DNA from: a virus
Virus record (IMG/VR): IMGVR_UViG_3300042564_002819
Coordinates: 266,025 to 330,024 of that record
DNA: 64,000 bases
Direction: 5' to 3' (one strand)
In this document: positions 22,815 through 60,626 of the stretch, piece by piece
How the letters are laid out: every line of letters begins with the position of its first letter
Position numbering within the stretch: the first letter of the stretch is position 1
Made by a program: the position numbers and the translations under genes
Notes under the pieces: generated by a model
Seen by the model: the letters and a program-made list of their open reading frames with translations, nothing else
Database searches by the model: none
Told to the model about the DNA's origin: nothing

Positions 22815-22818
22815 CAAT

Positions 22819-22895: not shown

Positions 22896-22900
22896 AAAAT

Positions 22901-23178: not shown

Positions 23179-23184
23179 AAAATT

Positions 23185-23260: not shown

Positions 23261-23469
23261 AAGAATTATACTACCATAAACACGAAAGAAAATAAAATGA
23301 AACTTGATCCGGAAGAAAGAATCTTCTTGACTGAAGAAGAATTGAAGCGTATACATGATGCTTGTGCTAATCCACCGGAACCAACAGACTATGTAAGACG
23401 CTATATTAACGCATATAGGAGAAAAAATGAAACGAAAACGTAACGCAGAAGATTATGACAAACGCAACA

Positions 23470-23545
23470 TGGACCGGTAGCTGAGGTGGTTTTAGCACCC
23501 GACTTTTAATCGGAGTACGTGGGTTCGAGTCCCACCCGGTCCACC
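23470..23545 (+). tRNA. tRNA-Lys(TTT)
   Basis: perfect acceptor GGACCGG/CCGGTCC; loop CTTTTAA. Confidence 0.8.
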
Positions 23546-23665
23546 ATAGTTTTGATGATACACTGACGCCGCGTGGTTACGGCTATACAACTAGGCTTAT
23601 CGCAACCTAATAACCATAGAGGGTTGAGTCGAGGTTGAGCAGTGTATCTTTTAAACTATGAATAT

Positions 23666-23741
23666 TGTTCCATAGCACAACTGGTTAGTGCAGGCGACTG
23701 ATAATCGTCAGATCTGAGTTCGAGTCTCGGTGGAACAACCA
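23666..23741 (+). tRNA. tRNA-Ile(GAT)
   Basis: acceptor TGTTCCA/TGGAACA; loop CTGATAA. Confidence 0.75.
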
Positions 23742-23953
23742 AAATTAGTAGGAAGACAGCCAGTGGAAGAACAGGAATATTACGCACCGTGGGAATGGCA
23801 GCCGATCGAATTCATGCCTAACGGATGTAATGATGTTGTTGTAAGAGACCGTGAAGGCAACACTCGAGAATTGTGTTCATGCGATTACTGGTGGTTGTCA
23901 GCAGAAGATAAAAAGATTTACACATCTTTTAGATTTGTGTAATTTTAACATAA

Positions 23954-24029
23954 TGCCGTGCTTGGTGTAAGGGTAGCATACCGCACTGTGACTGCGTTGG
24001 AATAGGTTCAAATCCTATACACGGTACCA
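23954..24029 (+). tRNA. tRNA-His(GTG)
   Basis: anticodon arm CCTGCC-like CCGCA-CTGTGAC-TGCGT; TTCAAAT T loop; acceptor register and G-1 uncertain. Confidence 0.6.
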
Positions 24030-24041
24030 ATACAAATTTAA

Positions 24042-24635
24042 TTATTGTACTTTTTTACTTAATACTCTGTATATGTCGTTATAGTTATTTTTATATTTCG
24101 ACTCATTGACAATTTCGTAGTTATATAATTGGTTTAATACCTTTAAACCATGTATTCCATCTTTAGTATCTAATTGATTGCATGTACCTATTACATGATC
24201 TGACAATGACAAACTATAATCAAATAGTTCTTCCCAAGTATTATTATATGGATACAGTTCTATAATTACCATTTGATGTTTTTTAGTGTAATTAAAAAAA
24301 TCACATTTCATAGCTGTGATGTTTGGGTAGTTGTGCATTGTGTTAAACAGTGCTAGGGTGTTTTGTTTTTTTAAAAACTTATCCGCACAAGTCATCTTAT
24401 GAAGATCACGCAACTCTTCGTATGTTTCAATATAGTGAAACGTATCTATTGCAGTAACATGTGTCTTTGGAAATGAACGACAAATTGCCGCAGCAACTCT
24501 GCCGCCAAATGTGCCAGCACACAAAACGTCACGTATATCATTGTTTGATATATGATCGCAAATATTAACTATTTCCTCGTATCCAGTCCAATTTGGAAAG
24601 TCCATTAGTATATTATATTTGCTTTTATATGACAT
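24042..24635 (-). CDS. putative SAM-dependent methyltransferase
   Basis: glycine-rich motif I LCAGTFGGRVAAA followed by an acidic residue; AAGGAA RBS. Confidence 0.4.
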   Translation of the reverse strand: MSYKSKYNILMDFPNWTGYEEIVNICDHISNNDIRDVLCAGTFGGRVAAAICRSFPKTHVTAIDTFHYIETYEELRDLHKMTCADKFLKKQNTLALFNTMHNYPNITAMKCDFFNYTKKHQMVIIELYPYNNTWEELFDYSLSLSDHVIGTCNQLDTKDGIHGLKVLNQLYNYEIVNESKYKNNYNDIYRVLSKKVQ

Positions 24636-24691
24636 GTGATATTCCTTGTATAACTAAAACGTATTTATAAAACTTAAAATAAGAGAGATAA

Positions 24692-25123
24692 ATGATGAGC
24701 AAATATGACACATATAACAGATTAACCGAACCTGTAAAATCATTTGATGAACTACGCGGCCGTGCGTTAACTCGTGTTGAAAAAATCGGAAACGACGAAT
24801 TGCGTTTCTACTTAACAGATGAACATTATGTTCGTATGCATCACAATCAAGATTGTTGCGAATCAGTAACAATCGAGGATATTGTTGGTGATTTAGACGA
24901 TTTAGTCGGAACTCCGTTGCTGGTTGTCGAAGAACGTGTTTCTCGTAACGATGGCGGTACAGATGAACTGTATTGTGATTCATACACTTGGACATACTAC
25001 AGTTTTCGCACTATCAAAGGTAGTGTAGATATTCGTTGGTATGGAAGTAGCAATGGATACTATTCAGAAGGTGTTGACATTGACATTGTAACACCCGATG
25101 CAGAAAATCAAGTAGAAATCTAA
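24692..25123 (+). CDS. hypothetical acidic protein
   Basis: 143-aa ORF with AAGAGAG RBS. Confidence 0.4.
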   Translation: MMSKYDTYNRLTEPVKSFDELRGRALTRVEKIGNDELRFYLTDEHYVRMHHNQDCCESVTIEDIVGDLDDLVGTPLLVVEERVSRNDGGTDELYCDSYTWTYYSFRTIKGSVDIRWYGSSNGYYSEGVDIDIVTPDAENQVEI

Positions 25124-25192
25124 GGCCAAAGGCTTAGATCACATCAAGTTAAACTGTATTATTTCTATATACTGTCATTTTATAAATATTTT

Positions 25193-25705
25193 ATGAGGGT
25201 ATTACTAATAATAACGCTATTATTATCTCTTTCTGCTTGTGCTGATTTTAAGAAAATTCTTCGACCCGAACCTACACCAGAACCGATAAAAACAGCAATA
25301 GAAAAAGTAGGTTGGAACGAGCATCAAGACCGCAGAGAAATAAGAGAATTTACTGGTGTAGATCCAGTAAGTACACAATGGTGTGCTGCGTTTGTAAACG
25401 CAGTTCTTGAAGAAAATGGGTTACCTGGATCGGAGTTCTATAACGAAAATCCACTGTTAGCAAGAAGTTTTCTGTCCTGGGGTGTAGAGGTAGAAGAGCC
25501 CGAATACGGCGATATTGTAGTATTTGCTCGAGGCAATGAAGCTTGGAAGGGTCATGTTGGGTTTTATGTAACTTCGACATATTTAGAAGGTCAAAAACAC
25601 TACTTAGTTCTTGGCGGAAATCAAAACAACAGTGTCACATACAAAGCATATCCTACTCGTAGACTGCTTTCTGTAAGACGACTTACAACAGAAGATACTG
25701 AATAA
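25193..25705 (+). CDS. lipoprotein, CHAP/NlpC-P60-like (TIGR02594-type) putative peptidoglycan hydrolase
   Basis: lipobox LSAC; conserved Cys (TQWCAAFVNAV) and His (WKGHVGFYV) spaced as in Cys-His amidases. Confidence 0.5.
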   Translation: MRVLLIITLLLSLSACADFKKILRPEPTPEPIKTAIEKVGWNEHQDRREIREFTGVDPVSTQWCAAFVNAVLEENGLPGSEFYNENPLLARSFLSWGVEVEEPEYGDIVVFARGNEAWKGHVGFYVTSTYLEGQKHYLVLGGNQNNSVTYKAYPTRRLLSVRRLTTEDTE

Positions 25706-25718
25706 AATTTAGTTTAAT

Positions 25719-25795
25719 GCTCTCGTAGCTCAATGGATTAGAGCGTCGGTCTACGAAACCGAAGGTTAGAGGTTCGAGTCCTCTCGAGAGTGCCA
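25719..25795 (+). tRNA. tRNA-Arg(ACG)
   Basis: anticodon stem TCGGT/ACCGA, loop CTACGAA. Confidence 0.75.
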
Positions 25796-25804
25796 AAATA
25801 CTAG

Positions 25805-25833
25805 TTGACACTGGCATAGACAAGTGTTATTGT
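25805..25833 (+). promoter_or_regulatory. sigma70-like promoter
   Basis: TTGACA-N17-TATTGT. Confidence 0.45.
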
Positions 25834-25858
25834 GAGTGCAACAAGAAAGGAAATACAC

Positions 25859-26155
25859 ATGAATAAAATTCTAATTTCTGCACTTTTTGCCTTTGTTTCT
25901 ACTGCTGCTACTGCAAAAACAGTTTATTACCCCGAAGCTGCATGTAACGAAATTCTCAGCAGCGAATACAGCACTGGTGGGGGTGATTCCAGCTGGGAGA
26001 TGTACGAAATTCTTTGCCGTGACGCTAATGGAAAATACACTACCTTTGTTACCAGCTGGATGAGTGTTGCAGGGTTCTTTGGTATGGGTCGAGTTGCATA
26101 CGAAGAAACGATTGACCTTGTACCCTACAACGGTACTACATTGAAGGCTGAATAA
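25859..26155 (+). CDS. secreted small protein
   Basis: signal peptide MNKILISALFAFVSTAATA; AAGAAAGGAAA RBS. Confidence 0.4.
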   Translation: MNKILISALFAFVSTAATAKTVYYPEAACNEILSSEYSTGGGDSSWEMYEILCRDANGKYTTFVTSWMSVAGFFGMGRVAYEETIDLVPYNGTTLKAE

Positions 26156-26156
26156 A

Positions 26157-26600
26157 ATGAAAATCGAATATCGTAAAGGCAACATGTTTGAAACTGACAT
26201 CCTGCATATTGCACATGGCTGCAATGCACAAGGTGTTATGGGATCTGGCGTTGCTAAGATTGTAAAAGAAGATTACTTTGATGCATATCGTTTCTACGCA
26301 GAACAGTACGACGAGCATGGACTTAAATTAGGAGATGTGCAGTTTGTTCCTGCAAACGGCAAAGTAATCATCAATGCTGTTACGCAGAATCTGTACGGCA
26401 AAGACGGTCGTCGTTTTGTTAATTACGAAGCAGTTGCAGAGTGCATGAGAACTATTAATAGTGTACTTAAGCAAAGTGGCGAAACTCATGTTGCTATGCC
26501 GCAAATTGGTGCCGGCCTTGGTGGCGGCGATTGGCGTGTGATTGAAGCAATCATTGAAAGCGAAATGACAGACATTCAACCTGTGGTGTATGTACTGTGA
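26157..26600 (+). CDS. macro domain (ADP-ribose binding/hydrolase) protein
   Basis: GNMFETDILHIAHGCNAQGVMGSGVA and MPQIGAGLGGGDW match Macro-domain glycine-rich loops. Confidence 0.75.
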   Translation: MKIEYRKGNMFETDILHIAHGCNAQGVMGSGVAKIVKEDYFDAYRFYAEQYDEHGLKLGDVQFVPANGKVIINAVTQNLYGKDGRRFVNYEAVAECMRTINSVLKQSGETHVAMPQIGAGLGGGDWRVIEAIIESEMTDIQPVVYVL

Positions 26601-26773
26601 CAACACCCTTAGCAGATCAGAAGATATTCTCACTCAATGATCTCATTGAAATGGGTCTTATTACACGTAAACAGTTAGAAGATCACATCCGATACATGGA
26701 AGCAAAACAGTTAGTAAAAGAACTGTTTCCAGGAATGTTTTAAAAATAAAGAATAGGTAGCCGCGACTACCTT

Positions 26774-26905
26774 GGCTAGGAGACTATTTGCATTGTGCAT
26801 CGTGGGGCCTTTGTGTAGTAGACTGTTTCGTCTAACGGAGAGGACGCCGGTGGAGATCCGGAGATACAGGTTCGAGTCCTGTAGCAGTTTTGCTCCTAGC
26901 CAAAA
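26774..26905 (+). ncRNA. tRNA-like element with 9-bp terminal stem and canonical T arm (about 130 nt)
   Basis: GGCTAGGAG...CTCCTAGCC closing stem; ACAGG-TTCGAGT-CCTGT T arm; extra hairpin AGCA-GTTT-TGCT; too long for a tRNA. Confidence 0.3.
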
Positions 26906-26912
26906 TAATTTA

Positions 26913-26988
26913 GCCTTCGTAGCTCAACTGGAAGAGCAAGGGATTTCTACTCCCTAGGTTGTGGGTTCGACTCCTGCCGGGGGCACCA
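26913..26988 (+). tRNA. tRNA-Arg(TCT)
   Basis: anticodon stem AGGGA/TCCCT, loop TTTCTAC; acceptor GCCTTCG/CGGGGGC with two G-U pairs. Confidence 0.7.
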
Positions 26989-26997
26989 AAAAAGCTG

Positions 26998-27026
26998 TTG
27001 ACACAGACTTGGCACTATGCTACAAC
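26998..27026 (+). promoter_or_regulatory. island promoter unit 1
   Basis: GTTGACA ... TATGCT/TACAAC, GAGGAA RBS. Confidence 0.45.
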
Positions 27027-27058
27027 AAGTTATTGAATAACACATGAGGAACACTGAG

Positions 27059-27448
27059 ATGAAGACTGCTTACAAGAACCGTGACGGCGAATGGGTTGTG
27101 GCCGAGCAGATCAAGATGAGCCGGTATGACCTTGAAGGTTCGGTAGATTCGATTAAGGCTGCACTGGACGAGGTTCGCGACCGTGCTACCGCAATGGGTA
27201 TGGTGGGTGAAGGCACTGTTGACATCAGCCTGAACCGCGGCTTCTACTCGGACGACTACGAAATAGAAGTGGAATACTCCTTCACTCGGTATGAATACCC
27301 TGTGGAGATGGAGCGGCGTTTGGAGCGTGAGGCCAAGGATAAGGCTGCGGCTGCTGCCAAGCGTAAGGAAGCCGCCCAGAAGCGGAAACTCAAGAACGAT
27401 CCTGAGTATGTGGAGTTTGAACGGCTCCGGGCCAAGTTTGGTGGTTGA
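27059..27448 (+). CDS. hypothetical protein (GC-rich island gene 1)
   Basis: about 50% GC versus about 38% background; own promoter and RBS; Lys/Ala/Glu-rich C-terminus. Confidence 0.5.
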   Translation: MKTAYKNRDGEWVVAEQIKMSRYDLEGSVDSIKAALDEVRDRATAMGMVGEGTVDISLNRGFYSDDYEIEVEYSFTRYEYPVEMERRLEREAKDKAAAAAKRKEAAQKRKLKNDPEYVEFERLRAKFGG

Positions 27449-27504
27449 CAACACTCTCCTGCTGTGCTATAACAACAGCATAGGGCAACACGAGGAGAAA
27501 TCAA
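27445..27504 (+). promoter_or_regulatory. island promoter unit 2 with conserved leader
   Basis: GTTGACA-N17-TATAAC then CATAGGGCAACACGAGGAG leader. Confidence 0.55.
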
Positions 27505-27852
27505 ATGCCTTGTAGAGTCAACGACGAAGACTGGAAACCGCGTAAAGAAACCCGCCACGGGATGGATATCGAATCTTTCGAAGCTACACTTTGCGGCGTC
27601 TTCACTGCTGCAGAGGAAGGCGCCTTTGCGCCTACGGTTGTTGGCGGAGTTGATGGCTTGCTGGATGTGATCGACTGGAAAGAAGCCGGAGTGAAACGCA
27701 AGACCGTTGAAGCATGGTGGAAGCGGCATAAGGCAGAAGATGCTGCCCGCCTTGCTCGCGAATCTGCTGAACGGCGTAAGGCTGAACTCAAGCGGATTGC
27801 GATCGGCAAACTCACTGCAGAAGAACTGGAAGTGTTGGGGATCAAACTCTAA
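27505..27852 (+). CDS. hypothetical protein (island gene 2)
   Basis: 115-aa ORF, GC-rich, own promoter and SD. Confidence 0.5.
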   Translation: MPCRVNDEDWKPRKETRHGMDIESFEATLCGVFTAAEEGAFAPTVVGGVDGLLDVIDWKEAGVKRKTVEAWWKRHKAEDAARLARESAERRKAELKRIAIGKLTAEELEVLGIKL

Positions 27853-27862
27853 CACTTTCTGG

Positions 27863-27923
27863 TTGACATCCTACCTACACCGTGCTATGTATATTGTATA
27901 GGGCAACAAGAGGACAACCACAG
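27863..27923 (+). promoter_or_regulatory. island promoter unit 3 with conserved leader
   Basis: GTTGACA-N17-TATGTA then TATAGGGCAACAAGAGGA leader. Confidence 0.55.
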
Positions 27924-28175
27924 ATGCCGAATCCTGCTACTGCTCCCCGTGACGAATTGAACGAGTTTACTCGCTCTGTATGGCTGCTTGGTAACAGCAA
28001 CTGGGGTAATCACGGTGTACGTCTTCGGAACGGGTTGATTGTCAAACCGATCTACAAGCCCGCAGAAGACGAGACCAGTGAAGATGCATTCTTCACCGAA
28101 GACTATGAATACTGCTGGAACCTGGACGGCACTTCGGTAACCCGCAGGGACTTTGATATGATGGAGATCGTGTGA
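27924..28175 (+). CDS. hypothetical protein (island gene 3)
   Basis: 83-aa ORF from the ATG 8 nt after the GAGGA box. Confidence 0.45.
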   Translation: MPNPATAPRDELNEFTRSVWLLGNSNWGNHGVRLRNGLIVKPIYKPAEDETSEDAFFTEDYEYCWNLDGTSVTRRDFDMMEIV

Positions 28176-28176
28176 T

Positions 28177-28584
28177 ATGATCAGAGACCTATTCGTTCCT
28201 GTGGCTGAACTGCTGTTCTGGTTCACCGGCGGAGAACTACTGCTGAATACCTGGTGGTTCTTTGTGTGGGTTGTTGGTGGTGCGTTCCTTGTAACCTTGC
28301 CGCTGTGGTTAGGTATGCGTCTGGCCAGACGTGGTAGTAACCTCAAGTGGATACCTGGCACACTCTTCCTAGTCGGCTTCTTCCCTGCCTTACTGCTGAT
28401 CACCAGCCCAGGCATCATCCAAGCCGACTTGATGGAAGAATGCCTACCCGTCCAGACCGTAACAGTGGATACCGCACAGGTCAAAGGTATTGAAGTTCGA
28501 GTTCGCCAGTGTCGCTTCAAGGCCAACTACTATGACAAAAATTATGGTGAATGGCAAGCCTGGGCGGTTGACCGGCACCAATAA
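28177..28584 (+). CDS. membrane protein (island gene 4), about 4 TM segments
   Basis: translationally coupled to gene 3; hydrophobic N-terminal half. Confidence 0.45.
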   Translation: MIRDLFVPVAELLFWFTGGELLLNTWWFFVWVVGGAFLVTLPLWLGMRLARRGSNLKWIPGTLFLVGFFPALLLITSPGIIQADLMEECLPVQTVTVDTAQVKGIEVRVRQCRFKANYYDKNYGEWQAWAVDRHQ

Positions 28585-28869
28585 CTGTATTATAAGCTGC
28601 ATAAGGAGAGACCGGCAACTTGTGTAGTGCATGTAGTGACGACTTGCGGATAACAGGTGGGATCGTGACATGTTGTAAATCTTTATGTAAGGGGTCGACA
28701 CTTTATATAGAGAGAACGCTGCATACGCTGTGGGACCTCGGCGTATCATTAAGGTGATCAAATCACGCAGGGGTAAAAGCCCTAATGAGGGGTCCTAGGA
28801 ATTAAAGGAAATACTGTGAGATATAGAAAGTTTTACGACGACTTCTAGGCTATAACCTAGGAGAATCAA

Positions 28870-29076
28870 ATGGCAAAATCACCTGTTTACGGCAGAGGCC
28901 GTAATCGTAAACATAGAGGGCACCGCGGCCCTGTTCACGCTGCGGCTGCTAACATCAATATGCGTGGCAAAAAAAGCAAACCTGACCACTGCTGGTGCTG
29001 TATTTGTATTGACATGCGTGAAGATATCTTGTATCGTATACACAAGAAGGAGATGAGAGATGAAAGAGACACGTAA
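28870..29076 (+). CDS. small basic Cys-rich ORF (doubtful)
   Basis: GGAGAA RBS but odd composition. Confidence 0.25.
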   Translation: MAKSPVYGRGRNRKHRGHRGPVHAAAANINMRGKKSKPDHCWCCICIDMREDILYRIHKKEMRDERDT

Positions 29077-29584
29077 GTATCTAGTATTTTTAGACATTGA
29101 CGGCGTTTTTACTAGCTCTCGTGTTCACTTTGCACACGCTGCTGCTTATGAAATGTGGCACAGATTTGATCCTGTAGCAGTTGATTTTATGAACAAGATT
29201 CATGACAGATATCCTGTGGAGTTTGTGATCATGAGTACTTGGAAGGACAACCTTCGCAGTGACGATAACAACGTAAAACACTGGGTTCATGCTGCGTTTG
29301 GCAACAGTGGCTTTCGTGGGCAACTTGCTACACCTTGGAAAACAGATCCTGACAACGTCATCTGGCAGCGTAAAGGTGCAAATGATCGTGCCTACGAAGT
29401 AAAAGAATATTTAGAACTATACGCAACAGATATAAAAGATTACATTTTGTTTGATGATAATCGCTATCAATTCAAAGAAGTGCTAGGCGTTAATCGCCTA
29501 GTTCATACAGATCACGAAAATGGTCTGTTATACAAGCATATGCTAAATGCTCATAGTTTGATGGGACAGTGGCACGAGCGGTGA
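29060..29584 (+). CDS. HAD-superfamily phosphatase (paralog 1)
   Basis: motif I LVFLDIDGVF; 174 aa. Confidence 0.55.
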   Translation: MKETRKYLVFLDIDGVFTSSRVHFAHAAAYEMWHRFDPVAVDFMNKIHDRYPVEFVIMSTWKDNLRSDDNNVKHWVHAAFGNSGFRGQLATPWKTDPDNVIWQRKGANDRAYEVKEYLELYATDIKDYILFDDNRYQFKEVLGVNRLVHTDHENGLLYKHMLNAHSLMGQWHER

Positions 29585-29616
29585 CATCGCTCGGAATAAT
29601 AACAAAGGAAACAGAG

Positions 29617-29826
29617 ATGACTAAAGAACAAGTTTTAAAATCGCTACCCACGTTTAAATTGCTGGCATGGGGAGAAACCGCAGAAACCAGCGGCAATGGA
29701 AAATATGTGCATTTTGATGCAAAAGAATCTAGTACACGTATCTTTACTATTGAAGCAATTCTTGCAGAACTAGATAAGCGTGACGACAATCCTAACCGAG
29801 ATTCTAGAAAAAAGAAGAAAAAATGA
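29617..29826 (+). CDS. hypothetical protein
   Basis: AAAGGAAACAGAG RBS then ATG. Confidence 0.3.
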   Translation: MTKEQVLKSLPTFKLLAWGETAETSGNGKYVHFDAKESSTRIFTIEAILAELDKRDDNPNRDSRKKKKK

Positions 29827-29909
29827 TTAAGTTGCATATTGCTAATTTGGTTAATATTTTGTTATCCAAATTGCAAGAGATATTGTATAATAGATTAATA
29901 AATTAAAGT

Positions 29910-30482
29910 ATGTGTAAGTTAGTTTTTGTTTATAGTTCTATGAATTCCGGTAAAAGCCTAGCTGTTCTTACCAAAAATTATATGTTAAAAGAAAAAGGTT
30001 TTAAGACTGTGCTCATGAAGCCGGCAGTTGATACTAGGACTGCGGCAACTGTGGCTACACGCTTAGGCTTAGAAGAGCCCTGTGTTGTACTAGGAACAAC
30101 TGATTTGCCTAGTCATACTATACTAAAATCAGCACACGACAAGCCTGATTTTATTATTGTTGACGAAGCACAGTTTTTAACAAGCGAACAAGTTTGGGAC
30201 CTAGCTGGCTTAGTCGACAACTGGGGCATAAACGTGTATTGCTATGGTCTACGACTTAACTGGCAAGGAGAGTTTTTTACAGGATCGGAAGCACTGATGA
30301 AAATTGCTGATGTGCTAGAACCAATCGAAAACTTCTGTCAAATAAATAAAGGAGCACTAGCATTCTTTCATATTAAAAAAGCAGGTGGCGATAATCCTGT
30401 AGAAGTTGGAATGGAAGACATGTATGACACTGCGTCTAGAAAAGCCTGGAAGCAGTGGTATGACACAAAAAGGCCTCTGTAG
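29910..30482 (+). CDS. tdk: thymidine kinase
   Basis: VFVYSSMNSGKSLAVL P-loop plus FIIVDEAQFL; extended TGTATAAT promoter upstream. Confidence 0.85.
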   Translation: MCKLVFVYSSMNSGKSLAVLTKNYMLKEKGFKTVLMKPAVDTRTAATVATRLGLEEPCVVLGTTDLPSHTILKSAHDKPDFIIVDEAQFLTSEQVWDLAGLVDNWGINVYCYGLRLNWQGEFFTGSEALMKIADVLEPIENFCQINKGALAFFHIKKAGGDNPVEVGMEDMYDTASRKAWKQWYDTKRPL

Positions 30483-30548
30483 CTCAATGGATAGAGCAGC
30501 AGACTTCGAATCTGTAGGTTGGGCGTTCGAGTCGCTCCAGGGGTACCA
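30473..30548 (+). tRNA. tRNA-Arg(TCG)
   Basis: starts inside the tdk stop codon; loop CTTCGAA. Confidence 0.7.
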
Positions 30549-30610
30549 AAATAACACTTGATCTCTTACTTTGCATAGTGTAAGCTGTAAGTATAGTAAA
30601 GGAGAATCAA

Positions 30611-30790
30611 ATGTGGAAACTTTATATTATGGAATCTGAACGCGGTTGGGGTCAACGAGTTGACGAAATACTAAAGTTCGACACGTATGAAGAGGCCGAT
30701 AAATACAAAAAAGAATTTAACAGTAAAAACAATCTTCCTGAAGTGCCTGATTGGTACATGTATGCAGATGGACCTGTTAAAGTAGATTAA
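30611..30790 (+). CDS. hypothetical small protein
   Basis: 59 aa, strong AAAGGAGAA RBS, wedged between two tRNAs. Confidence 0.45.
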   Translation: MWKLYIMESERGWGQRVDEILKFDTYEEADKYKKEFNSKNNLPEVPDWYMYADGPVKVD

Positions 30791-30874
30791 GTCGCTGTGG
30801 TGTAATGGTAGCCACGACAGCTTGAGGTGCTGTTGCCGCAAGGCGTGGGAGTTCGAATCTCCCCAGCGACACCA
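30791..30874 (+). tRNA. tRNA-Leu(GAG)
   Basis: class II; acceptor GTCGCTG/CAGCGAC; loop TTGAGGT; variable arm TGCCGCAAGGCG. Confidence 0.75.
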
Positions 30875-36559: not shown

Positions 36560-36592
36560 AAAGCCTGGTTAAACTCCAGGCTTTTCTTTTGG
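36560..36592. terminator. bidirectional rho-independent terminator
   Basis: AAAGCCTGG-TTAAACT-CCAGGCTTT then TCTTTT; between converging genes. Confidence 0.7.
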
Positions 36593-37300
36593 TTCTAGCG
36601 TGGTTTGTTGAGGCGGCGGAGCAGGTTGTTGTGCTGCTCGGTCTCTTGAACGATTTCTTGCTTGTAGTTCGTTATCAATCCATGCTTGTGCAGTAGGATT
36701 CTTAACTGGTGTATTAAGCCATCTGCGTATAGGACGTTCGACTCTATTAAAATTAGGCTGTTCGCCGTTGTTATCTACTACAAAAAATCTATCGCCGAAT
36801 AAAGTTTTTAATTGTTCAGCACCTTGCTGTATTCTATCATATGTCGTTTTTATGAAATTGTGATCTATTTCTCTACCGTAGTCCGGACCAGGCACTTGAG
36901 CTCTTCTTTCAGCTCGTTCGATACTGGTTTCTAGTGTAACATCAACAAACACCATTATGGTTTCGTAACCTCTAGACTCTAATGTTTCTTTGATTTCCTT
37001 AATTACATTTGGATTTTTTGCTGTTCCGTTAACGATTAAGCCCATTCTACCTTTTTGTGATAATTCGTCTTCTTTTCTATAATGCTGCCAAAATTTTTCG
37101 TAATCTTGTGGTTGGCCTTTTTTCTGGTAAAGTGTCCAAAATTTATCTACATTTAGTTCTTTTAAGCCACTGCCTCTAAATAAACGACTAACTACTGTGC
37201 TTTTACCTGCGCCGGGAGCACCGGCCATAAAAACAGCCTTGAAAATGTTAGGATCGTACACGCCCTCTTTTGTAATTTGGGTGATTTCGTTAATCTTCAT
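36569..37300 (-). CDS. P-loop kinase (zeta-toxin/AAA_33-like)
   Basis: Walker A FMAGAPGAGKSTV; isolated minus-strand gene. Confidence 0.5.
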   Translation of the reverse strand: MKINEITQITKEGVYDPNIFKAVFMAGAPGAGKSTVVSRLFRGSGLKELNVDKFWTLYQKKGQPQDYEKFWQHYRKEDELSQKGRMGLIVNGTAKNPNVIKEIKETLESRGYETIMVFVDVTLETSIERAERRAQVPGPDYGREIDHNFIKTTYDRIQQGAEQLKTLFGDRFFVVDNNGEQPNFNRVERPIRRWLNTPVKNPTAQAWIDNELQARNRSRDRAAQQPAPPPQQTTLEPKEKPGV

Positions 37301-37329
37301 ACTATATTTATGTTTGAAATAAATATAAT

Positions 37330-40300
37330 ATGAGATTAAGAAACCTTTTTGAAGTACAAGTGCAACCAGGTGAACGCAGAGGATTTTCGCTGCGGTTGAA
37401 GCGTCTTGAAGATTTGCAAGTAAAAATTGCAGAAATACAAAATACTATAAGCGAACTTGGTAATGTTAGCGTTCCAGAAAACTTAAAAAAACAAATGGAA
37501 GATCTTATCGATGCTGCTAAAATAGAAAAAGAAAAAATCTATGCAGAAGTATCTGACGCAGAAGTAAAAAATCCAAGAATTCAAGGAATACCTGGATCTG
37601 TCATGAAGTTACTTAGAGGCATAGAAAAAAATGCTTCAACTATAATGAACGCATACAGAAAAACTGGAAAATATCTCTATAGAGGAATCAAATCTTCCGA
37701 AGACGCACTTTATGGAAAACCTTTTGACATCAGAAAAGCCAAGGATAGTAATGTAGATTTAAGTAATGCATTAAATCAATCCTTAGCAGACCAAGGATTT
37801 AATGCTAGAAGAGACAACACTACTTTTACTTCTGGTTCTTATAATCAGGCTAGTAATTACGGTACTGTGTATATAATATTTCCTAGAGATGGGTTCTCAT
37901 TCCATTACAGTAAAAAGATAAGAGACCTTGTTTTAGATACCGGCAAGATTGATATGTTACTGGATCCCGAAATAACAGGTTATATCGAAAGTGCTATACG
38001 TTCTAACTGGAGCAATCTCAAAAACTATTTTTCTTATAAATTTAGTGGAGATAAATTCTTTACAGGTTATGAATATCAAAAAGATTTAGATGGGTTACAA
38101 CGTGCAGTAGCAGACGGTGTGCTTCCACAAGAATTTGCAAAATATAAGACTTTTTATGATCTAGTTGATCCTGCAAAAGTTATAGCTAATTTTCAATACA
38201 ATCAAACTGATCTCGACAGTGCTATAACTTCCGAACATGAAGTCATGATTACAGGACCGTATTATGCTGTTAAAACAGAGTCCTTTCAAGATTATATTGA
38301 CAAATATATTAAAATGACAGCAAATGGTGAATTTGATGTCACTCCAGATAACAAAAAAGAAAAAACTACTTTAAATCAAAAAATACAATCTATAGTAGGC
38401 GGTTCCGCGCCTGAGTTTGCAATAGGAGATTGGGTGCAGCATAAGTACGAAGGATTTAAAGGTGAAGTTGTTGACTATTACCATACCAATGACTTTGTTC
38501 AAATTAAAGATTATGCCGGAAAACTAAAATTAGTCAATAAGAAAAATATTGATAAAATTAAAACTCCTGAGATGCCCGACTACCAGCCCGGCGATAAAGT
38601 TTATCTAAGAACAAAAGACACAGAATGGGAATATTATAATAATAAAAAATACAAGGTAGTAGACTCTGATAAGTTTACCGTAACAGTTCAAAAAGGCAGT
38701 TACGACACCACAATTACATTACCTAAATTGTTAACCGAACCTGCTCCTAAATTTGATACCAAAGATCCAAGTGTAGGAGACACAGTTCATGTTACCAAGG
38801 GCGATTTTGAAAACATGTACGGAACTATTACATATGTTTCTAGTTACAGTAAAGATATTGATGTTGACTTCGGAGACAGCGATTCGCACACTGTTCAAAA
38901 AGGATCTTACGAAGTTATTGATCCTGCAACAAAACCTGCAGATGCAAACTCTATTGCATCAAAGTTTAAAGAAGGTGATTACGTTAGAATCTCTGACGAC
39001 GGGTTTGATTACAGTGGTCTTGTAGCGGTAATTAATAAACCTGGTTTATCAAAATCAAGAGTATATCCGTTCGGCGAAAAAAGTTATGCTTTAAGTATAA
39101 AAAATTCTAGATTAAAAGCTATTGATGAAGATGAATTTAAAAAACAATCGTTTAGCATAACAGATCAAGTAGTTGTATCTGGCGGCAAGCATGATGGAAA
39201 GAGTGGAAAACTTAATTATGTAAGCTTTGATGGAACTATGGAAATAGTTGTCAGTAGTGGTAACACCATAGAAGTACCCGGAAAATATGTTTTTAATCAA
39301 AACGTAAATGGTTCTCCTGAAAATAACGAGAATAAAGAAACAATTAAAAAAGGTGATTTTGTAAAAATCTCAGACGACTCGGACTTGTTCCCAGGTTCTG
39401 TAGCAAAAGTAGTTGTAAAGAATTCCGGCGAAAAATCTACAATATTAGTAAACAACGACAACAATCTCGATTATATTATTGATACAAAATATCTAACCAA
39501 GATTGATGAAAATGAATTTAACAATAAAAAGCTGTCAACCGGCGACGAAGTCAATGTCACAGACGGATATTATAAAGGAAAAACTGGAAAAATAAAATCG
39601 TTTGGGACTGATGGTCCTGTAAGAGTTGATATAACTTCGCCGTCCACAGGGGATACATTTACAATTAAGGTACTTCCACAATACTTGGAAAAAATAAATC
39701 AAAGCAGTGACGACTTAATTGATTTAATGGATCTTGAGTTTGAACCGATGGACGAGCCTACTGATTTTAAAAATAATGAAACTAAAAAATTTAAAGTCGG
39801 CGACAGCGTAAAAGTAATTAATGGTAAACACAAAGGAAAAACTGGAAAAATAAATTACCTATATACGTATACAAAAGAAGCGTATGTTGACTTCGACGGT
39901 GAATATCACGACATTGAGTTAAAAGACTTAGAGTTAGACAAAGAAGAATCAAAAACTGATAGCAATTTTAACAAAGACGAATTAAAAAAGCTAATCAGTC
40001 AAGGAAAAGAAAAAGGTTTTATAACCTATAATCAACTAAACGATGTAGTGCCTTCGGACAAAGTTACTTCTGAAGAAATTGAAGATATAATGGATATGTT
40101 AAATGAATTAGGAATCAATTTAGTTGATGCTGAAAAAGACTCGGCTCCATCAGGTGAAACTCCACAGGAATTACAAGCAAGAATAAACGATCCAGATACA
40201 AAAGCGTTCCTTAAACAAGCATTTGCAGATCCTGATGTAAAAGAACTAGTGAGTAATATAATCAAAAAGAAAATTATAACAACCGACGACATTGATAATA

Positions 40301-40389
40301 TATCTGTTCTAGTAGGATATGACAAGTATTTGTTTGGCATAAAACCATATATCGAACTTAAAGGCGTTGTATACCAACCTACTACTTGA
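37330..40389 (+). CDS. multidomain protein: Alt-like ADP-ribosyltransferase candidate, about 8 KOW-like repeats, C-terminal sigma70 region 1.1-like domain
   Basis: ART R-S-E candidates YLYRGIK / TFTSGSY / SEHEVMITG; repeats GDxVxVxxGxxKGKxG (e.g. GDEVNVTDGYYKGKTGKI, GDSVKVINGKHKGKTGKI); C-terminus ELKKLISQGKEKGFITYNQLNDVVPSDKVTSEEIEDIMDMLNELGINLVD versus E. coli RpoD QLKLLVTRGKEQGYLTYAEVNDHLPEDIVDSDQIEDIIQMINDMGIQVME. Confidence 0.55.
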   Translation: MRLRNLFEVQVQPGERRGFSLRLKRLEDLQVKIAEIQNTISELGNVSVPENLKKQMEDLIDAAKIEKEKIYAEVSDAEVKNPRIQGIPGSVMKLLRGIEKNASTIMNAYRKTGKYLYRGIKSSEDALYGKPFDIRKAKDSNVDLSNALNQSLADQGFNARRDNTTFTSGSYNQASNYGTVYIIFPRDGFSFHYSKKIRDLVLDTGKIDMLLDPEITGYIESAIRSNWSNLKNYFSYKFSGDKFFTGYEYQKDLDGLQRAVADGVLPQEFAKYKTFYDLVDPAKVIANFQYNQTDLDSAITSEHEVMITGPYYAVKTESFQDYIDKYIKMTANGEFDVTPDNKKEKTTLNQKIQSIVGGSAPEFAIGDWVQHKYEGFKGEVVDYYHTNDFVQIKDYAGKLKLVNKKNIDKIKTPEMPDYQPGDKVYLRTKDTEWEYYNNKKYKVVDSDKFTVTVQKGSYDTTITLPKLLTEPAPKFDTKDPSVGDTVHVTKGDFENMYGTITYVSSYSKDIDVDFGDSDSHTVQKGSYEVIDPATKPADANSIASKFKEGDYVRISDDGFDYSGLVAVINKPGLSKSRVYPFGEKSYALSIKNSRLKAIDEDEFKKQSFSITDQVVVSGGKHDGKSGKLNYVSFDGTMEIVVSSGNTIEVPGKYVFNQNVNGSPENNENKETIKKGDFVKISDDSDLFPGSVAKVVVKNSGEKSTILVNNDNNLDYIIDTKYLTKIDENEFNNKKLSTGDEVNVTDGYYKGKTGKIKSFGTDGPVRVDITSPSTGDTFTIKVLPQYLEKINQSSDDLIDLMDLEFEPMDEPTDFKNNETKKFKVGDSVKVINGKHKGKTGKINYLYTYTKEAYVDFDGEYHDIELKDLELDKEESKTDSNFNKDELKKLISQGKEKGFITYNQLNDVVPSDKVTSEEIEDIMDMLNELGINLVDAEKDSAPSGETPQELQARINDPDTKAFLKQAFADPDVKELVSNIIKKKIITTDDIDNISVLVGYDKYLFGIKPYIELKGVVYQPTT

Positions 40390-40422: not shown

Positions 40423-41316
40423 ATGAATCAAAAATTACAAGATCATTTAATCGGGTCACTTGTTGGCCTTGCCGTCGGTGATGCAGTAGGCACTACTGTT
40501 GAATTTAAACCGCGTGGCTCATTTCCTAAGATTGTTGACATGATCGGCGGCGGCCCTTTTAGATTGCCAGTAGGGTATTGGACAGATGATACATCTATGG
40601 CATTGTGCCTAGCAGAAAGTCTTATAGCATATCCACTGCTTGATAAAAAAGATTTGTTAACTCGTTTTTGTAACTGGTATAAGAATGGACATAATTCTTC
40701 TACCGGTCGTTGCTTTGACATTGGTAATACAACTGTCTCTGCACTAGAAGAATTTATTCACAGTGGTCAAACGAATAACAATCCTGAAGACTTTTATGCA
40801 GGTAATGGATCTATTATGCGATTGTCTCCTGTGGCAATTGCAAATTATAAAGACTTACACAAAGCAATTAAAATTGCACGTGAACAAAGTGAAACAACTC
40901 ATGAAACTATTAAAGCAACTGCTTCTTGTGAGTTGCTTGCAGAAATTTTAGTTAGAGCATACACTGCTGAAACTAAACAGCAAGTAATGGATATTGAATG
41001 TCCGTTACATTGGCCCGAACCTGTTTGCGATATTGTTGCATCTAGCGTTGTTAAAAAAACTGAAGCAGAAATTAAGTCTTCGGGTTACGTTATTGACACA
41101 TTAGAAGCAGCCGTCTGGGCATTTTTAAATACAGACAACTTTGAGGATGCAGTTTTAATAGCAGTTAATCTTGGACACGATGCTGATACAGTCGGTGCTG
41201 TAACAGGACAAATTGCCGGAGCATACTATGGAGAAACCGGAATTCCTAAACATTGGCTAGAAAAGCTTTATAACCATGAACACATCAGAAACCTTGCAAT
41301 CAAACTTTCCGAATAA
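40423..41316 (+). CDS. ADP-ribosylglycohydrolase (DraG/ARH family)
   Basis: LIGSLVGLAVGDAVGTTVEF and GYWTDDTSMALCLAESL match the ARH di-metal site region. Confidence 0.8.
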   Translation: MNQKLQDHLIGSLVGLAVGDAVGTTVEFKPRGSFPKIVDMIGGGPFRLPVGYWTDDTSMALCLAESLIAYPLLDKKDLLTRFCNWYKNGHNSSTGRCFDIGNTTVSALEEFIHSGQTNNNPEDFYAGNGSIMRLSPVAIANYKDLHKAIKIAREQSETTHETIKATASCELLAEILVRAYTAETKQQVMDIECPLHWPEPVCDIVASSVVKKTEAEIKSSGYVIDTLEAAVWAFLNTDNFEDAVLIAVNLGHDADTVGAVTGQIAGAYYGETGIPKHWLEKLYNHEHIRNLAIKLSE

Positions 41317-48890: not shown

Positions 48891-49967
48891 ATGAAATATG
48901 ACGCTCTAGTCTTTATCGGCCGGTTCCAGCCGTTTCACAATGGACACAAGGCAATTGTTGATGCCGCCCTTGAACGAGCAAAAGAAGTAATCATTGTAGT
49001 TGGTTCTAGCTTTTCTTCAAGGAATATCCGAAATCCTTTTACATTTGATGAACGCAGACAGATGATTAAAGCTGTGTTCCCGCAGGAGAACGTTAAAGTC
49101 GTTCCTGTTAGCGATTACCCGTATGATGATAATAAATGGGTTCATGCTGTGCAAAACGTAGTTCGCGGTGCGATGCGTTGGAGTGCTGATCCGATTCGAG
49201 TTGGCCTTATCGGCCATGAAAAGGACGGATCTAGCTACTACTTGAAAATCTTCAAGCCGCTAGGTTGGGGTAACGTTAGCGTAAACAACGTCGACGGCGT
49301 TAATGCAACAGACATTCGCAATATGTTGTTTGCATCTGCTCCGGATAGTTCAACTATTCTTCCAACTATTGTCCATAAAATTTATGAACAATTTGTTCAT
49401 AAAACTATGAATAAACAGGCAGTAGAAACTATGCACTCACTGATTATAAAAGATGGAGTTGTATCACCATGGTTTGAAACGCTGTTCCAAGAATACCAAA
49501 TGATCAAGAAGTACAAGGAAGCATGGAAAGCTGCTCCATTCCCTCCTACTTTCATGACTGTTGATGCTGTTGTTGTTCAAAGCGGACACATCCTTCTTGT
49601 GAAACGTGGCGACATGCCTGGTAAAGGTCTTTGGGCTTTGCCCGGTGGGTTCCTTAATCAAGGTGAAACAATGCTTGACGGTGCCATTCGTGAACTCAAA
49701 GAAGAAACTAAAATCAAAGTTGCTGTGCCTGTACTAAAGGGTTCTATTAAAGCGTTTAACACTTTTGATGCACCTAACCGCAGCCAGCGTGGACGTACTA
49801 TTACACAGGCGTTCTACATTGACCTTGGCTTTGCAGAAGAACTTCCTAAAGTAAAAGGCAGCGACGATGCAGAAAAAGCGTTTTGGGTTCCGTTTCACAA
49901 AGTGAAACAAGAACTTATGTTCGAAGATCACTTTCATATTATCGACCATTTTGTTAACATTGGGTAA
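48891..49967 (+). CDS. natV: bifunctional NMN adenylyltransferase / Nudix hydrolase (NatV-like)
   Basis: N-terminal cytidylyltransferase FIGRFQPFHNGH; C-terminal Nudix box GGFLNQGETMLDGAIRELKEETKI. Confidence 0.75.
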   Translation: MKYDALVFIGRFQPFHNGHKAIVDAALERAKEVIIVVGSSFSSRNIRNPFTFDERRQMIKAVFPQENVKVVPVSDYPYDDNKWVHAVQNVVRGAMRWSADPIRVGLIGHEKDGSSYYLKIFKPLGWGNVSVNNVDGVNATDIRNMLFASAPDSSTILPTIVHKIYEQFVHKTMNKQAVETMHSLIIKDGVVSPWFETLFQEYQMIKKYKEAWKAAPFPPTFMTVDAVVVQSGHILLVKRGDMPGKGLWALPGGFLNQGETMLDGAIRELKEETKIKVAVPVLKGSIKAFNTFDAPNRSQRGRTITQAFYIDLGFAEELPKVKGSDDAEKAFWVPFHKVKQELMFEDHFHIIDHFVNIG

Positions 49968-50317: not shown

Positions 50318-51772
50318 ATGACAAACGTACTAAATCTACTAACTGCTATTATTCGCACTGACAGCTATAAGCTGAGCCAGTGGCTACAATATCCAAAGGA
50401 CACTGTCCGTATTAGTTCATACATCGAAAGTCGTGGTGGCGAAGACGAATCGGTATTCTTTGGTCTACAAGCGTTCATTAAACAGTATATGATGACACCG
50501 ATTACTGTAGCAGATATCAATCGTGCTGAACTTATTGTAAAAGCACACGGACTGCCTTTCAACAGAGAAGGTTGGGAAATCATCGTCAAAGAATACGGCG
50601 GCATTCTGCCGTTGGAAATCGAAGCTGTTCCTGAAGGTACCGTTATGGAGACCCATAACGTGCAAGTGCAGATTGTTAATACCGATCCACGCTTGTTCTG
50701 GTTGACCTCATATGTTGAAACTGCAATGCTTCGCGGCATTTGGTATCCTTCAACTGTTGCTACAAAGAGCCGTAAAATGAAGAAACTCATTGCTGCTGCT
50801 CTTGAACTAACTAGCGACGTTCCTGTTAACGATCAAATCATGTTCAAGCTACACGACTTTGGTGCTCGTGGTGCAAGTTCTTCTGAAACTGCAATGCTTG
50901 GTGGTATGGGTCACCTTGTTAACTTTATGGGTACTGACACTGTGGAAGCACTTGTTGGTGCAATGGAATATTACAACACAGACTCTGTACCTGGGTTTAG
51001 TATTCCTGCTAGTGAACACTCAACAATCACTAGCTGGGGTGGTCCTGCTGGAGAAGTTGTAGCATTTGAAAACATGATCAATACATTTGCCGGTCCCGGT
51101 AAACTGTATGCTTGTGTTAGCGACAGCTACGACATTTACTCTGCCGCACGTGACTTGTGGGGCGGCGTTCTAAAAGAAAAAGTCATTGCTGCCGGCGGCA
51201 CCTTGGTGGTACGTCCGGACTCAGGTGATCCTACTACAGTTCCGATTGAAGTTATTGGCATCCTTATGGATCGCTTTGGATACACTGTTAACAGCAAAGG
51301 CTACCGAGTACTTCCTCCTTACATCCGTCTAATCCAAGGAGATGGTATCAACGAAAAAACTTTGCCTAAGATCTTGTCAAACATGGTTGAAGCAGGTTAC
51401 AGCATTGATAACATTGCATTTGGTATGGGCGGTGGCTTGCTACAAGCGTGGAACCGTGATACACTCAAGTATGCTATGAAAGCTAGTGCTAGACAGGATA
51501 CTGAGGGTGTATGGCACGATGTCTTTAAAGATCCGATCTCAGACCGCGGCAAAGTGTCTAAAAAAGGTCGTCTTGGATTAGTTTATGAGTGCGGGATTGG
51601 AAACTGCGGTTATAGAACTCTTCCAAAGTCGGTTGCTGACAAAAAAGGCAACCTACTGAGAACTGTATATCGCAACGGTGAACTCTTAATTGAGGACACT
51701 TTTGAAAATATTCGCAATCGTGCAAAACTTAAAGTGGAGGAATACACTCATGATGTCGTTGAAAGATATTGA
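50318..51772 (+). CDS. nadV: nicotinamide phosphoribosyltransferase (NadV-like)
   Basis: 484 aa; type II PRTase features (FGARGASS, GMGGGLLQ); adjacent to natV as in KVP40-type phages. Confidence 0.75.
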   Translation: MTNVLNLLTAIIRTDSYKLSQWLQYPKDTVRISSYIESRGGEDESVFFGLQAFIKQYMMTPITVADINRAELIVKAHGLPFNREGWEIIVKEYGGILPLEIEAVPEGTVMETHNVQVQIVNTDPRLFWLTSYVETAMLRGIWYPSTVATKSRKMKKLIAAALELTSDVPVNDQIMFKLHDFGARGASSSETAMLGGMGHLVNFMGTDTVEALVGAMEYYNTDSVPGFSIPASEHSTITSWGGPAGEVVAFENMINTFAGPGKLYACVSDSYDIYSAARDLWGGVLKEKVIAAGGTLVVRPDSGDPTTVPIEVIGILMDRFGYTVNSKGYRVLPPYIRLIQGDGINEKTLPKILSNMVEAGYSIDNIAFGMGGGLLQAWNRDTLKYAMKASARQDTEGVWHDVFKDPISDRGKVSKKGRLGLVYECGIGNCGYRTLPKSVADKKGNLLRTVYRNGELLIEDTFENIRNRAKLKVEEYTHDVVERY

Positions 51773-60625: not shown

Positions 60626-60626
60626 T

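Follow-up and report, generated by a model that had tools for sequence, protein, structure and literature searches.

A sigma-70 region 1.1 domain in a giant T4-like phage protein with KOW repeats and a candidate ADP-ribosyltransferase

Introduction

Region 1.1 of sigma70 sits in the downstream-DNA channel of RNA polymerase (RNAP), which is positively charged. It is autoinhibitory in free sigma70, and accounts of it are normally confined to its part as a gatekeeper inside primary sigma factors. Several phage systems bear on a region 1.1 domain found in a virus. Phage T4 encodes Alt, ModA and ModB, mono-ADP-ribosyltransferases of the R-S-E type that modify RNAP and translation factors of the host; we know of no ADP-ribosylarginine hydrolase in T4. 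The small T4 proteins Srd and Srh have similarity to sigma regions other than 1.1, and neither is known to be a region 1.1 domain at the Pfam level. The KOW fold is used by NusG/Spt5 and by L24. [quoted passage not shown]

Here we describe a viral protein of 1019 residues in which region 1.1 is conserved apart from sigma. The gene was analysed within a 64-kb stretch of DNA, referred to as the window.

Results

The gene derives from a giant T4-like phage and consists of a single uninterrupted open reading frame of 1019 codons (Table 1). Its product comprises an N-terminal domain (N-domain), KOW repeats with an acidic linker, a region 1.1 domain and a C-terminal helical domain, in that order. 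The identical protein was present on at least six independent contigs, the longest of 330 kb, and the architecture is kept in about 18 metagenomic homologues with 43-64% identity. Near-identical DNA was not found among the INPHARED phages. A tblastn search of the same collection returned a 29% match to the N-domain in the Agrobacterium jumbo phage Atu_ph07, the remaining matches being to RpoD genes from records that are contaminants or prophages. The 64-kb window held no second region 1.1 copy, extra N-domain paralogue or ModA/B homologue. No exact match to the T4 late promoter TATAAATA was observed near position 37300, and its counts across the window were not above chance.

Table 1 Features of the 1019-residue protein gene and its neighbours. 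Positions refer to the window.
Feature	Position	Strand	Basis or remarks
P-loop kinase, Zeta-toxin/AAA_33 type, divergently transcribed upstream gene	36569..37300	-	Pfam families
Whole gene, multidomain protein	37330..40389	+	ORF list
Conserved N-terminal leader MRLRNL[FY]E..PGERKG	37330..37389	+	L3, E8 and G14 at least 90% conserved in alignment
Long alpha-helical hairpin, aa 24-80	37399..37569	+	
N-domain core, aa 88-335, candidate R-S-E ADP-ribosyltransferase	37591..38334	+	
Seven KOW/SH3-like beta-barrel repeats, aa 363-414, 418-471, 480-531, 546-599, 608-658, 672-726 and 735-794	38416..39711	+	Pfam KOW, KOW4_SPT5; self-built HMM
Conserved acidic linear motif SSDDLIDLMDLEFEPMDEPTDF	39712..39789	+	In all full-length homologues
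Eighth KOW repeat, aa 821-870, classic GKHKGKTGKI KOW motif	39790..39939	+	Pfam KOW, repeat HMM
Sigma-70 region 1.1 domain, aa 881-941	39970..40152	+	PF03979 match
C-terminal five-helix domain, aa 942-1019, ends PYIELKGV	40153..40386	+	Specific to the protein's clade
Tri1/DraG-type ADP-ribosylarginine hydrolase, downstream gene	40423..41316	+	NF041672, TIGR02662, PHROG 6572

A first-pass annotation made from the DNA letters had noticed a resemblance to sigma70 region 1.1 in this protein and had pointed to Pfam family PF03979 (Sigma70_r1_1) as the comparison to make. The resemblance is real: residues 881 to 941 scored 72.9 bits against a gathering threshold of 22.5 (E 2.1e-20), and precomputed PF03979 matches exist for 18 of 21 homologues. 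Furthermore, the segment has the compact helical fold of domain 1.1 known from solved structures. The domain is a true homologue of region 1.1 rather than the mimic it had been called. It had also been placed in the last 75 or so residues, whereas the matching segment is followed by a separate helical domain of 78 residues. The statement that nothing else of sigma is present was borne out, as no Pfam match to Sigma70_r1_2, r2, r3 or r4 was obtained at E<=1 anywhere in the protein. Since regions 1.2, 2, 3 and 4 do not follow region 1.1, the protein cannot be counted among the sigma factors. Searched in all six frames, the window gave a single region 1.1 match. We conclude that residues 881 to 941 are a bona fide sigma-70 region 1.1, captured without the remainder of sigma.

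The domain is acidic, with a net charge of -7 over 61 residues compared to -10 for E. coli residues 1 to 60, and charges of -1 to -7 in relatives show that this acidity is not uniform. Sequence conservation of region 1.1 within the phage family is low and its divergence fast; conserved positions include the hydrophobic core and a G-I motif that corresponds to G52-I53 of E. coli. The domain is kept in several clades with N-domain identities of only 31-37%, and it is dispensable, being missing from sister clades. In more distant IMG/VR clades it forms the very C-terminus and the C-terminal domain is absent.

A scan of 1.84 billion proteins with residues 869 to 1019 returned mostly short N-terminal fragments of RpoD (40-58% identity), and the C-terminal domain matched only members of its own family. 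Sigma region 1.2 was considered as an identity for this last domain and rejected, with neither a Pfam Sigma70_r1_2 match nor a fold match; more widely, the domain matches no part of sigma in sequence or in fold. A Nitrospinota host was suggested by RpoD sequences with 52-58% identity to region 1.1; that contig scan was seeded by exact 8-mers, and we regard the suggestion as seeding bias.

KOW repeats had likewise been proposed for this reading frame, and the profile searches agree. The protein scored 50.5 bits against PF00467 (cut-off 22.3) and 56.1 bits against PF23291 (cut-off 27), and the Pfam scores are accompanied by a G-x-x-G-K-x-G motif on an SH3-like barrel. Eight repeats were delimited in total, their boundaries being set with a self-built HMM, and the strongest Pfam KOW stretch covers residues 823 to 842. 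The same repeat HMM detected between 2 and 10 repeats per homologue, a count that is a lower bound for divergent members. The array is not markedly basic (net charge per 50 residues, -5 to +2). The acidic motif has the family consensus DDLIDLxDxDFEPLDEP.

The N-domain, a conserved enzyme-like unit made up of the first 350 residues, gave no match to Pfam, NCBIfam or PDB profiles, and a fold comparison found none either. Three motifs were nevertheless recognised, namely LYRG (R118), TFTSGS (residues 165 to 170) and EHEVMI (E304), with a helical insert of about 85 residues between the second and third; F-T-[ST] and hEVMI are the family forms of these two. R118 and E304 are invariant, position 168 is S or T in at least 90% of sequences, and all motifs lie on predicted strands. 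The first Glu of the ExE motif is present in the 1019-residue protein (EHE) and is not conserved in relatives. By hhalign, similarity was weak both to ModB (E 0.0022, probability 12.8%) and to a ModA/B profile (E 0.016, probability 2.9%), while T4 Alt showed no similarity to the N-domain (probability 0.1%). On excision of the insert, all three motifs fell in register with ModA/ModB, again weakly (E 6e-4 to 9e-3, probability 4-11%). The N-domain is probably a divergent ADP-ribosyltransferase, proposed here to be of the R-S-E mono-ADP-ribosylating type and akin to T4 ModA/ModB. The first-pass annotation, which named a putative ADP-ribosyltransferase, is partly supported in its overall interpretation.

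Of the whole protein, a C-terminal alignment and an alignment of the N-domain, only the last gave confirmed hits in IMG/VR, locating the N-domain in 58 loci; it belongs to no Pfam family. Stand-alone N-domain proteins of 320-355 residues occur in many viral contigs and also carry the leader. A hydrophobic-x-Glu pattern at residues 6 to 8 may be likened to the capsid-targeting leaders (L/I-x-E) of T4 prohead-protease substrates. The conserved leader has the general form M-x-L-x-x-L-[FY]-E, and its L-x-E hints at a possible packaging of the protein in the head and its injection, as with Alt.

The downstream hydrolase begins some 30 nt past the stop codon. Its reading frame is open from a GTG at 40405, the source gene call beginning at 40423. 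It matched NCBIfam NF041672 with an E value of 4.6e-106 and TIGR02662 (DraG) with 3.9e-54. The former match spans profile positions 60 to 355 of 361; since it begins only at position 60, the N-terminal extension of Tri1 is absent. The adjacency of the hydrolase is kept in loci L001-L009 and in 11 IMG/VR loci. On the other side, homologues of the kinase lie within 6 kb of N-domain genes, mostly directly adjacent to them, in 29 of the 58 IMG/VR loci, and they also adjoin stand-alone N-domain genes. More broadly, the N-domain is linked to Zeta-type kinase, ARH and Nudix genes.

Discussion

We tentatively propose, as a possibility short of a likelihood, that the protein is a modular effector in which a captured region 1.1 brings an Alt/ModA-like enzyme to host RNAP. 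Region 1.1 would serve as the targeting or anchoring module, perhaps working together with the KOW array, and the two would deliver the enzyme to the RNAP core or to a holoenzyme with a sigma devoid of region 1.1. There the N-domain would ADP-ribosylate arginines at RNAP. The adjacent Tri1/DraG-type hydrolase would undo the modification or keep it in check, for the sake of timing or self-protection. Like Alt, the protein might be carried in the head and injected. A more specific form of the proposal, which we think unlikely, is that region 1.1 has been exapted as a trans-acting address tag for the RNAP channel, setting the ModA/B-like enzyme beside beta and beta-prime with the hydrolase providing reversibility. 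The downstream-DNA channel into which the domain inserts would belong to host core RNAP or to a holoenzyme formed with a sigma without region 1.1, such as a late sigma of the T4 gp55 type, and the outcome would be a programmable on/off polymerase switch at the DNA channel and not at the alpha C-terminal domain.

Other roles for the domain have to be weighed against targeting. It might act within the protein as an acidic, DNA-mimicking lid, masking, before the target is met, a surface on the KOW array or C-terminal domain that binds nucleic acid or a partner, or, if the protein is packaged, preventing it from sticking to densely packed phage DNA. The autoinhibition exerted by region 1.1 in free sigma70 offers a precedent, the domain is acidic and lies directly between a KOW barrel and a conserved helical domain, and the L-x-E leader would fit a packaged protein. 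We find such a lid doubtful, however, given that the distant relatives end in region 1.1 with no C-terminal domain behind it, that the array is not markedly basic, and that nucleic-acid binding by its repeats is an assumption. A quite unlikely role is to act as decoy or docking module towards proteins that recognise, or are regulated by, sigma region 1.1, the target then being something other than the RNAP channel: the DNA-binding regions 2 and 4 of sigma70 itself, bound in trans in the manner of an anti-sigma factor, or host and rival-phage binders of region 1.1 resembling T7 Gp2. T4 Srd and Srh are annotated as postulated sigma decoys through local sigma similarity, non-sigma proteins with region 1.1 exist (for instance the two-copy ankyrin-repeat protein P0042) and make a portable interaction module possible, and Gp2 works via region 1.1 (PMC7064336, citing Bae et al. 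2013). The low conservation of the domain nonetheless speaks against a precise protein-protein interface and suits charge-based binding better.

Loss from sister clades, fast divergence and the existence of stand-alone N-domains would all be expected of a helical spacer with no role in transcription, the KOW repeats and region 1.1 then giving bulk or solubility only, for example in an ejection protein or internal head protein, or in an enzyme whose targets are not RNAP. We hold this to be very unlikely: the domain persists across clades with strongly diverged N-domains, its core and G-I motif are conserved, and it co-occurs with a second transcription-type module. The unusual architecture is all that speaks for an artefact, be it decay of a phage sigma-factor gene, fusion by frameshift or a chimeric assembly. 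Against this stand the intact reading frame, the identical protein on independent contigs, the conserved architecture, the lack of remnants of regions 1.2 to 4 in the protein and the single region 1.1 match in the window; the probability of an artefact is negligible and we regard it as effectively refuted.

The literature searched contained no description of a phage region 1.1 fusion, and the domain organisation suggests a previously undescribed way of aiming a phage enzyme at host RNAP. If the targeting proposal holds and RNAP is bound in trans, region 1.1 would be a natural minimal ligand of the downstream-DNA channel, of use as a probe or inhibitor scaffold. The T4 Alt/ModA paradigm would gain a domain dedicated to targeting and, in the hydrolase, a built-in eraser, and phages would be seen to capture pieces of host transcription (sigma region 1.1, NusG/Spt5-type KOW) as address modules. 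The analysis also defines a widespread and unannotated viral enzyme-like domain.

Comparison with known systems

For region 1.1, the closest relatives are the group-1 sigma factors RpoD and SigA (PF03979; structures 5mww, 2k6x and the E. coli holoenzyme 4lk1). Unlike theirs, the phage domain is found close to the C-terminal end of a protein other than sigma, lacks the following acidic linker, region 1.2 and the regions 2 to 4 that tether it to RNAP, and is less acidic (-7 versus -10 over about 60 residues). Other unusual occurrences include an RpoD with 11 tandem copies (P0035), a sigma-like protein with four (P0036) and the ankyrin-repeat protein P0042 with two; from these, region 1.1 is seen to be a module that is portable and open to duplication. 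P0035 and P0036 remain sigma factors, however, P0042 has no enzyme or KOW part, and all three are unrelated to the phage family outside region 1.1.

Among phage proteins, T4 Srd and Srh share, by their annotation, the concept of a fragment-like piece of sigma in a T4-type phage, but neither is joined to an enzyme. In its proposed site of action and charge-based logic, the 1019-residue protein recalls T7 Ocr and Gp2 (PMC7064336), although neither has a sequence or fold relationship to it; both are small stand-alone inhibitors, whereas here a sigma domain would supply the channel-type module and is fused to an enzyme-like domain.

The conserved adjacency of a DraG-family ADP-ribosylarginine hydrolase is shared with the Tre1-Tri1 and DraT-DraG pairs. 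In contrast to Tri1, the phage hydrolase has no N-terminal toxin-occluding extension, the upstream enzyme is not detectably homologous to Tre1 or DraT, and the locus belongs to a phage rather than to a T6SS or nitrogenase-regulation locus.

The candidate R, S-T-S and ExE motifs of the protein align in register with T4 ModA and ModB. The T4-type phage context and the proposed purpose, host RNAP modification, are common to Alt, ModA and ModB, and the N-terminal L-x-E leader suggests possible injection in the manner of Alt. Homology to Alt is not significant, and the similarity to ModA/B is weak (probability 3-13%). Unlike all three, the phage protein is much larger, carries KOW repeats and region 1.1, and is encoded by a gene paired with an ADP-ribosylarginine hydrolase.

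A homologue of sigma70 region 1.1 lies within a multidomain phage protein

The 1019-residue product of window positions 37330..40389 (plus strand) almost certainly contains a homologue of sigma70 region 1.1. Residues 881 to 941 belong to PF03979 by all tests applied, which bears out the observation of the first-pass annotation with two corrections: identity to E. coli sigma70 is 44% and not about 50%, and the domain does not form the C-terminal 75 residues, as had been supposed, but stops 78 residues ahead of the stop codon. Regions 1.2 to 4 were tested for and are absent, in line with the earlier remark that nothing else of sigma is present, and so the protein cannot be classed as a sigma factor. 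A search for a second region 1.1 in the window found none. The domain has a net charge of -7 over 61 residues, compared with -10 for E. coli residues 1 to 60, and its hydrophobic core and G-I turn (E. coli G52-I53) are retained in the family.

The KOW repeats that had been proposed were delimited as eight barrels, the last of which, in homologues P0007-P0017, looks NusG-CTD-like by eye. A strongly conserved acidic linear motif, present in two copies in homologue P0013, is reminiscent of docking tails of the acidic-hydrophobic type, for example the SSB C-terminus. Neither a sequence match nor a fold match was found for the C-terminal domain. At the N-terminus, a leader of the form M-x-L-x-x-L-[FY]-E, with hydrophobic-x-Glu at about residue 8, is common to homologues P0002-P0034 and P0184-P0193. 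Judged by its sequence, this leader resembles the T4 capsid-targeting and prohead-protease cleavage leaders, a likeness by which the family defined by the N-terminal ~350 residues (the N-domain) may as a whole consist of packaged, injected proteins.

Features of the 1019-residue protein, its neighbouring genes and auxiliary metabolic-type genes of the window
Feature	Residues	Window position	Remarks
Zeta-toxin/AAA_33-type P-loop kinase		36569..37300	minus strand; upstream, divergently transcribed
Conserved leader MRLRNL[FY]E..PGERKG		37330..37389	N-terminus
Long helical hairpin	24-80
Alpha/beta core	88-335
Seven KOW/SH3-like barrels	363-794
Conserved acidic motif DDLIDLxDxDFEPxDEP	795-820	39712..39789	between KOW repeats; homologues P0002-P0019
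Eighth KOW	821-870
Region 1.1	881-941
Separate C-terminal domain, five helices	942-1019	40153..40386	predicted at high confidence (pLDDT above 90)
ADP-ribosylglycohydrolase (ARH) gene		40423..41316	starts ~30 nt past the stop codon of the large gene
IMPDH/GMP reductase		1166..2299	auxiliary metabolic-type
Ornithine/DAP/arginine decarboxylase		13036..14214	auxiliary metabolic-type
549-aa protein, curlin repeats and discoidin (F5/8 type C) domain		7622..9271	grouped with auxiliary metabolic-type genes

Conservation of the architecture

An artefact was excluded: the ORF is uninterrupted, the identical protein is encoded on at least six contigs from different metagenomes (the longest of 330 kb), and the whole architecture is kept in ~18 homologues at 43-64% identity. 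A precomputed PF03979 match exists for 18 of 21 homologues. The more distant P0020 and P0021 possess the N-domain and KOW repeats without region 1.1 or the C-terminal domain.

Relatives of the N-domain are encoded at 58 IMG/VR loci (L025-L082), at 11 of which a large protein is followed by an ARH gene. In three of these 11 (L027, L034 and L033; N-domain only 31-37% identical) a region 1.1-like domain forms the exact C-terminus with no further domain, the Pfam scores for this group being 18.4 and 24.2 bits, and homologue P0030 terminates likewise. The combination of N-domain, KOW repeats and region 1.1 is therefore old and extends across several clades. Region 1.1 is nevertheless optional, being absent at L025, L028-30 and L035. 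Within the main family it shows the lowest conservation of any domain: its mean pairwise identity is 34%, whereas the C-terminal domain reaches 42% and the N-domain 55-72%. Its net charge there runs from -1 to -7. In the 490-kb Agrobacterium jumbo phage Atu_ph07 (MF403008.1 / NC_042013.1), tblastn located N-domain-like sequence at five positions; the domain family has thus expanded into paralogues there. Two N-domain copies also occur on several IMG/VR contigs.

The N-domain is a candidate ADP-ribosyltransferase

Four lines of evidence make it probable, though not proven, that the N-domain is a divergent ADP-ribosyltransferase (ART) of the R-S-E type; the earlier ART assignment stands in this qualified form. 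Across 23 diverse homologues the alpha/beta core is invariant at R118, G119, R135, R161, G178, F184, D199, E304, Y311 and A313. The invariant pattern is LYRG ... F-T-[ST] ... hEVMI, with each motif on a predicted beta-strand and a helix after the first two; at the third motif the window protein possesses EHE, a full ExE. Alignment with T4 ModB using hhalign placed LYRG/LYRG and RsNSIFtTs/NRVDSFTTS in register (E 0.0022, probability 12.8%), and a seven-member ModA/ModB profile gave the same alignment (E 0.016). In an exploratory analysis, with cut boundaries chosen by the analyst, excision of the ~85-residue helical insert that separates motif 2 from motif 3 allowed all three catalytic motifs to align (ghEVMI/EqEwMIP; E 6e-4 to 9e-3, probability 4-11%). 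The ART reading is also favoured because the conserved partner gene encodes an arginine-specific ADP-ribosylhydrolase, and such pairing of ART and hydrolase genes is the logic of Tre1-Tri1 and DraT-DraG (PMC8120803).

Gene neighbourhood and phage context

The arrangement of kinase, large gene and ARH recurs where the large protein is only 30-50% identical. The hydrolase matches the NCBIfam profile 'ADP-ribosylarginine hydrolase Tri1' (E 4.6e-106) and DraG (E 3.9e-54), but lacks the N-terminal extension of Tri1. By eye, it retains the GDAxG and DxDT signatures, the metal-site motifs of the ADP-ribosylglycohydrolase family. Stand-alone N-domain genes (320-355 aa) adjoin Zeta-like kinases, with Nudix genes close by; within 6 kb, a kinase was found at 29 of the 58 loci, ARH at 11 and Nudix at 10. 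Kinase, N-domain and Nudix/ARH may thus form a three-part NAD/ADP-ribose-related module. Divergent kinase adjacency persists (also at genomic loci L010 and L011) even beside stand-alone N-domain proteins only ~30% identical. In the 29-nt gap 37301..37329 between kinase and large gene, each start codon is directly preceded by ATAAATATA[G/A]TATG, and a Shine-Dalgarno-like run of purines is lacking; the motif may serve this phage as a shared promoter element or signal for translation initiation.

The window is part of a large uncultivated T4-type phage encoding rIIB and Rnl1 families, a split PNK, thymidine kinase, NAMPT plus NMNAT/Nudix, and 30 tRNA genes; no close relative was found in INPHARED. 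The bifunctional NMNAT-Nudix enzyme (48891..49967) and NAMPT (50318..51772), an NAD+ salvage pair as in KVP40-like phages, map to the early-gene region that also contains the hydrolase and the candidate ART, an enzyme that would consume NAD. The tRNA genes form two clusters (22728..30874 and 55105..63777) and include tRNA-Ser(ACT) and duplicated Leu(GAG) and Pro(TGG); two ARAGORN calls (58591..58666 and 63704..63777) have aberrant 2-nt and 4-nt anticodons. A 679-aa fusion of a CHASE2 sensor and an adenylate/guanylate cyclase catalytic domain (9927..11966) is unusual phage cargo.

Possible roles of region 1.1

T7 Gp2 exploits sigma70 region 1.1 in the RNAP channel, and this channel is also bound, through charge complementarity, by the acidic DNA mimic T7 Ocr, which is unrelated (PMC7064336). 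T4-type phages depend on the RNAP of the host, which they modify through the ARTs ModA and Alt, the latter head-injected (PMC2988021, PMC8120803). On these precedents a modular effector is the best-supported reading, and the earlier interpretation is upheld in part; that the protein is an RNAP-targeted ART effector is a tentative proposal. The captured region 1.1 would bring an Alt/ModA-like enzyme to RNAP, possibly assisted by the KOW array, and the adjacent hydrolase would undo the modification or keep it in check. What the sequences show is which domains are present, how far they are conserved and which genes are linked; that the protein has ART activity, that it binds RNAP and what its substrate is are inferred. 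Without a tether, region 1.1 may bind only weakly, and in sigma70 holoenzyme its site is already filled; core enzyme, or a holoenzyme with a sigma that has no region 1.1, would accordingly be the most likely target.

Alternatively, region 1.1 could serve as an intramolecular lid, autoinhibitory or DNA-repelling, by analogy with free sigma. It might instead engage sigma regions 2 and 4, or proteins that recognise region 1.1, as a decoy or docking module, a role for which T4 Srd and Srh, annotated as sigma decoys, offer precedent, or it could be a functionally neutral helical module within a packaged protein. Its dispensability in sister clades and fast evolution fit non-specific electrostatic binding, and fit weak constraint just as well.

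Comparison with known systems

Full-text literature searches found neither a phage effector built on region 1.1, in agreement with the first-pass annotation, nor the family of the present protein. Outside its normal sigma context, region 1.1 is rare but not unique. A scan of 1.84 billion proteins returned an ankyrin-repeat protein of 363 aa that has two copies but lacks any other part of sigma (P0042), a 1413-aa RpoD with 11 tandem repeats (P0035) and a sigma-like protein with four, in which region 4 is the only other detectable part (P0036). Membership of the Alt family is not demonstrable, and any kinship of the protein with ModA/ModB is remote; by hypothesis, its action would unite that of Alt/ModA with that of an Ocr-like channel binder. 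The protein would thus join a known kind, the effectors by which phages act on the RNA polymerase of the host, with the proposed targeting principle as the new element.
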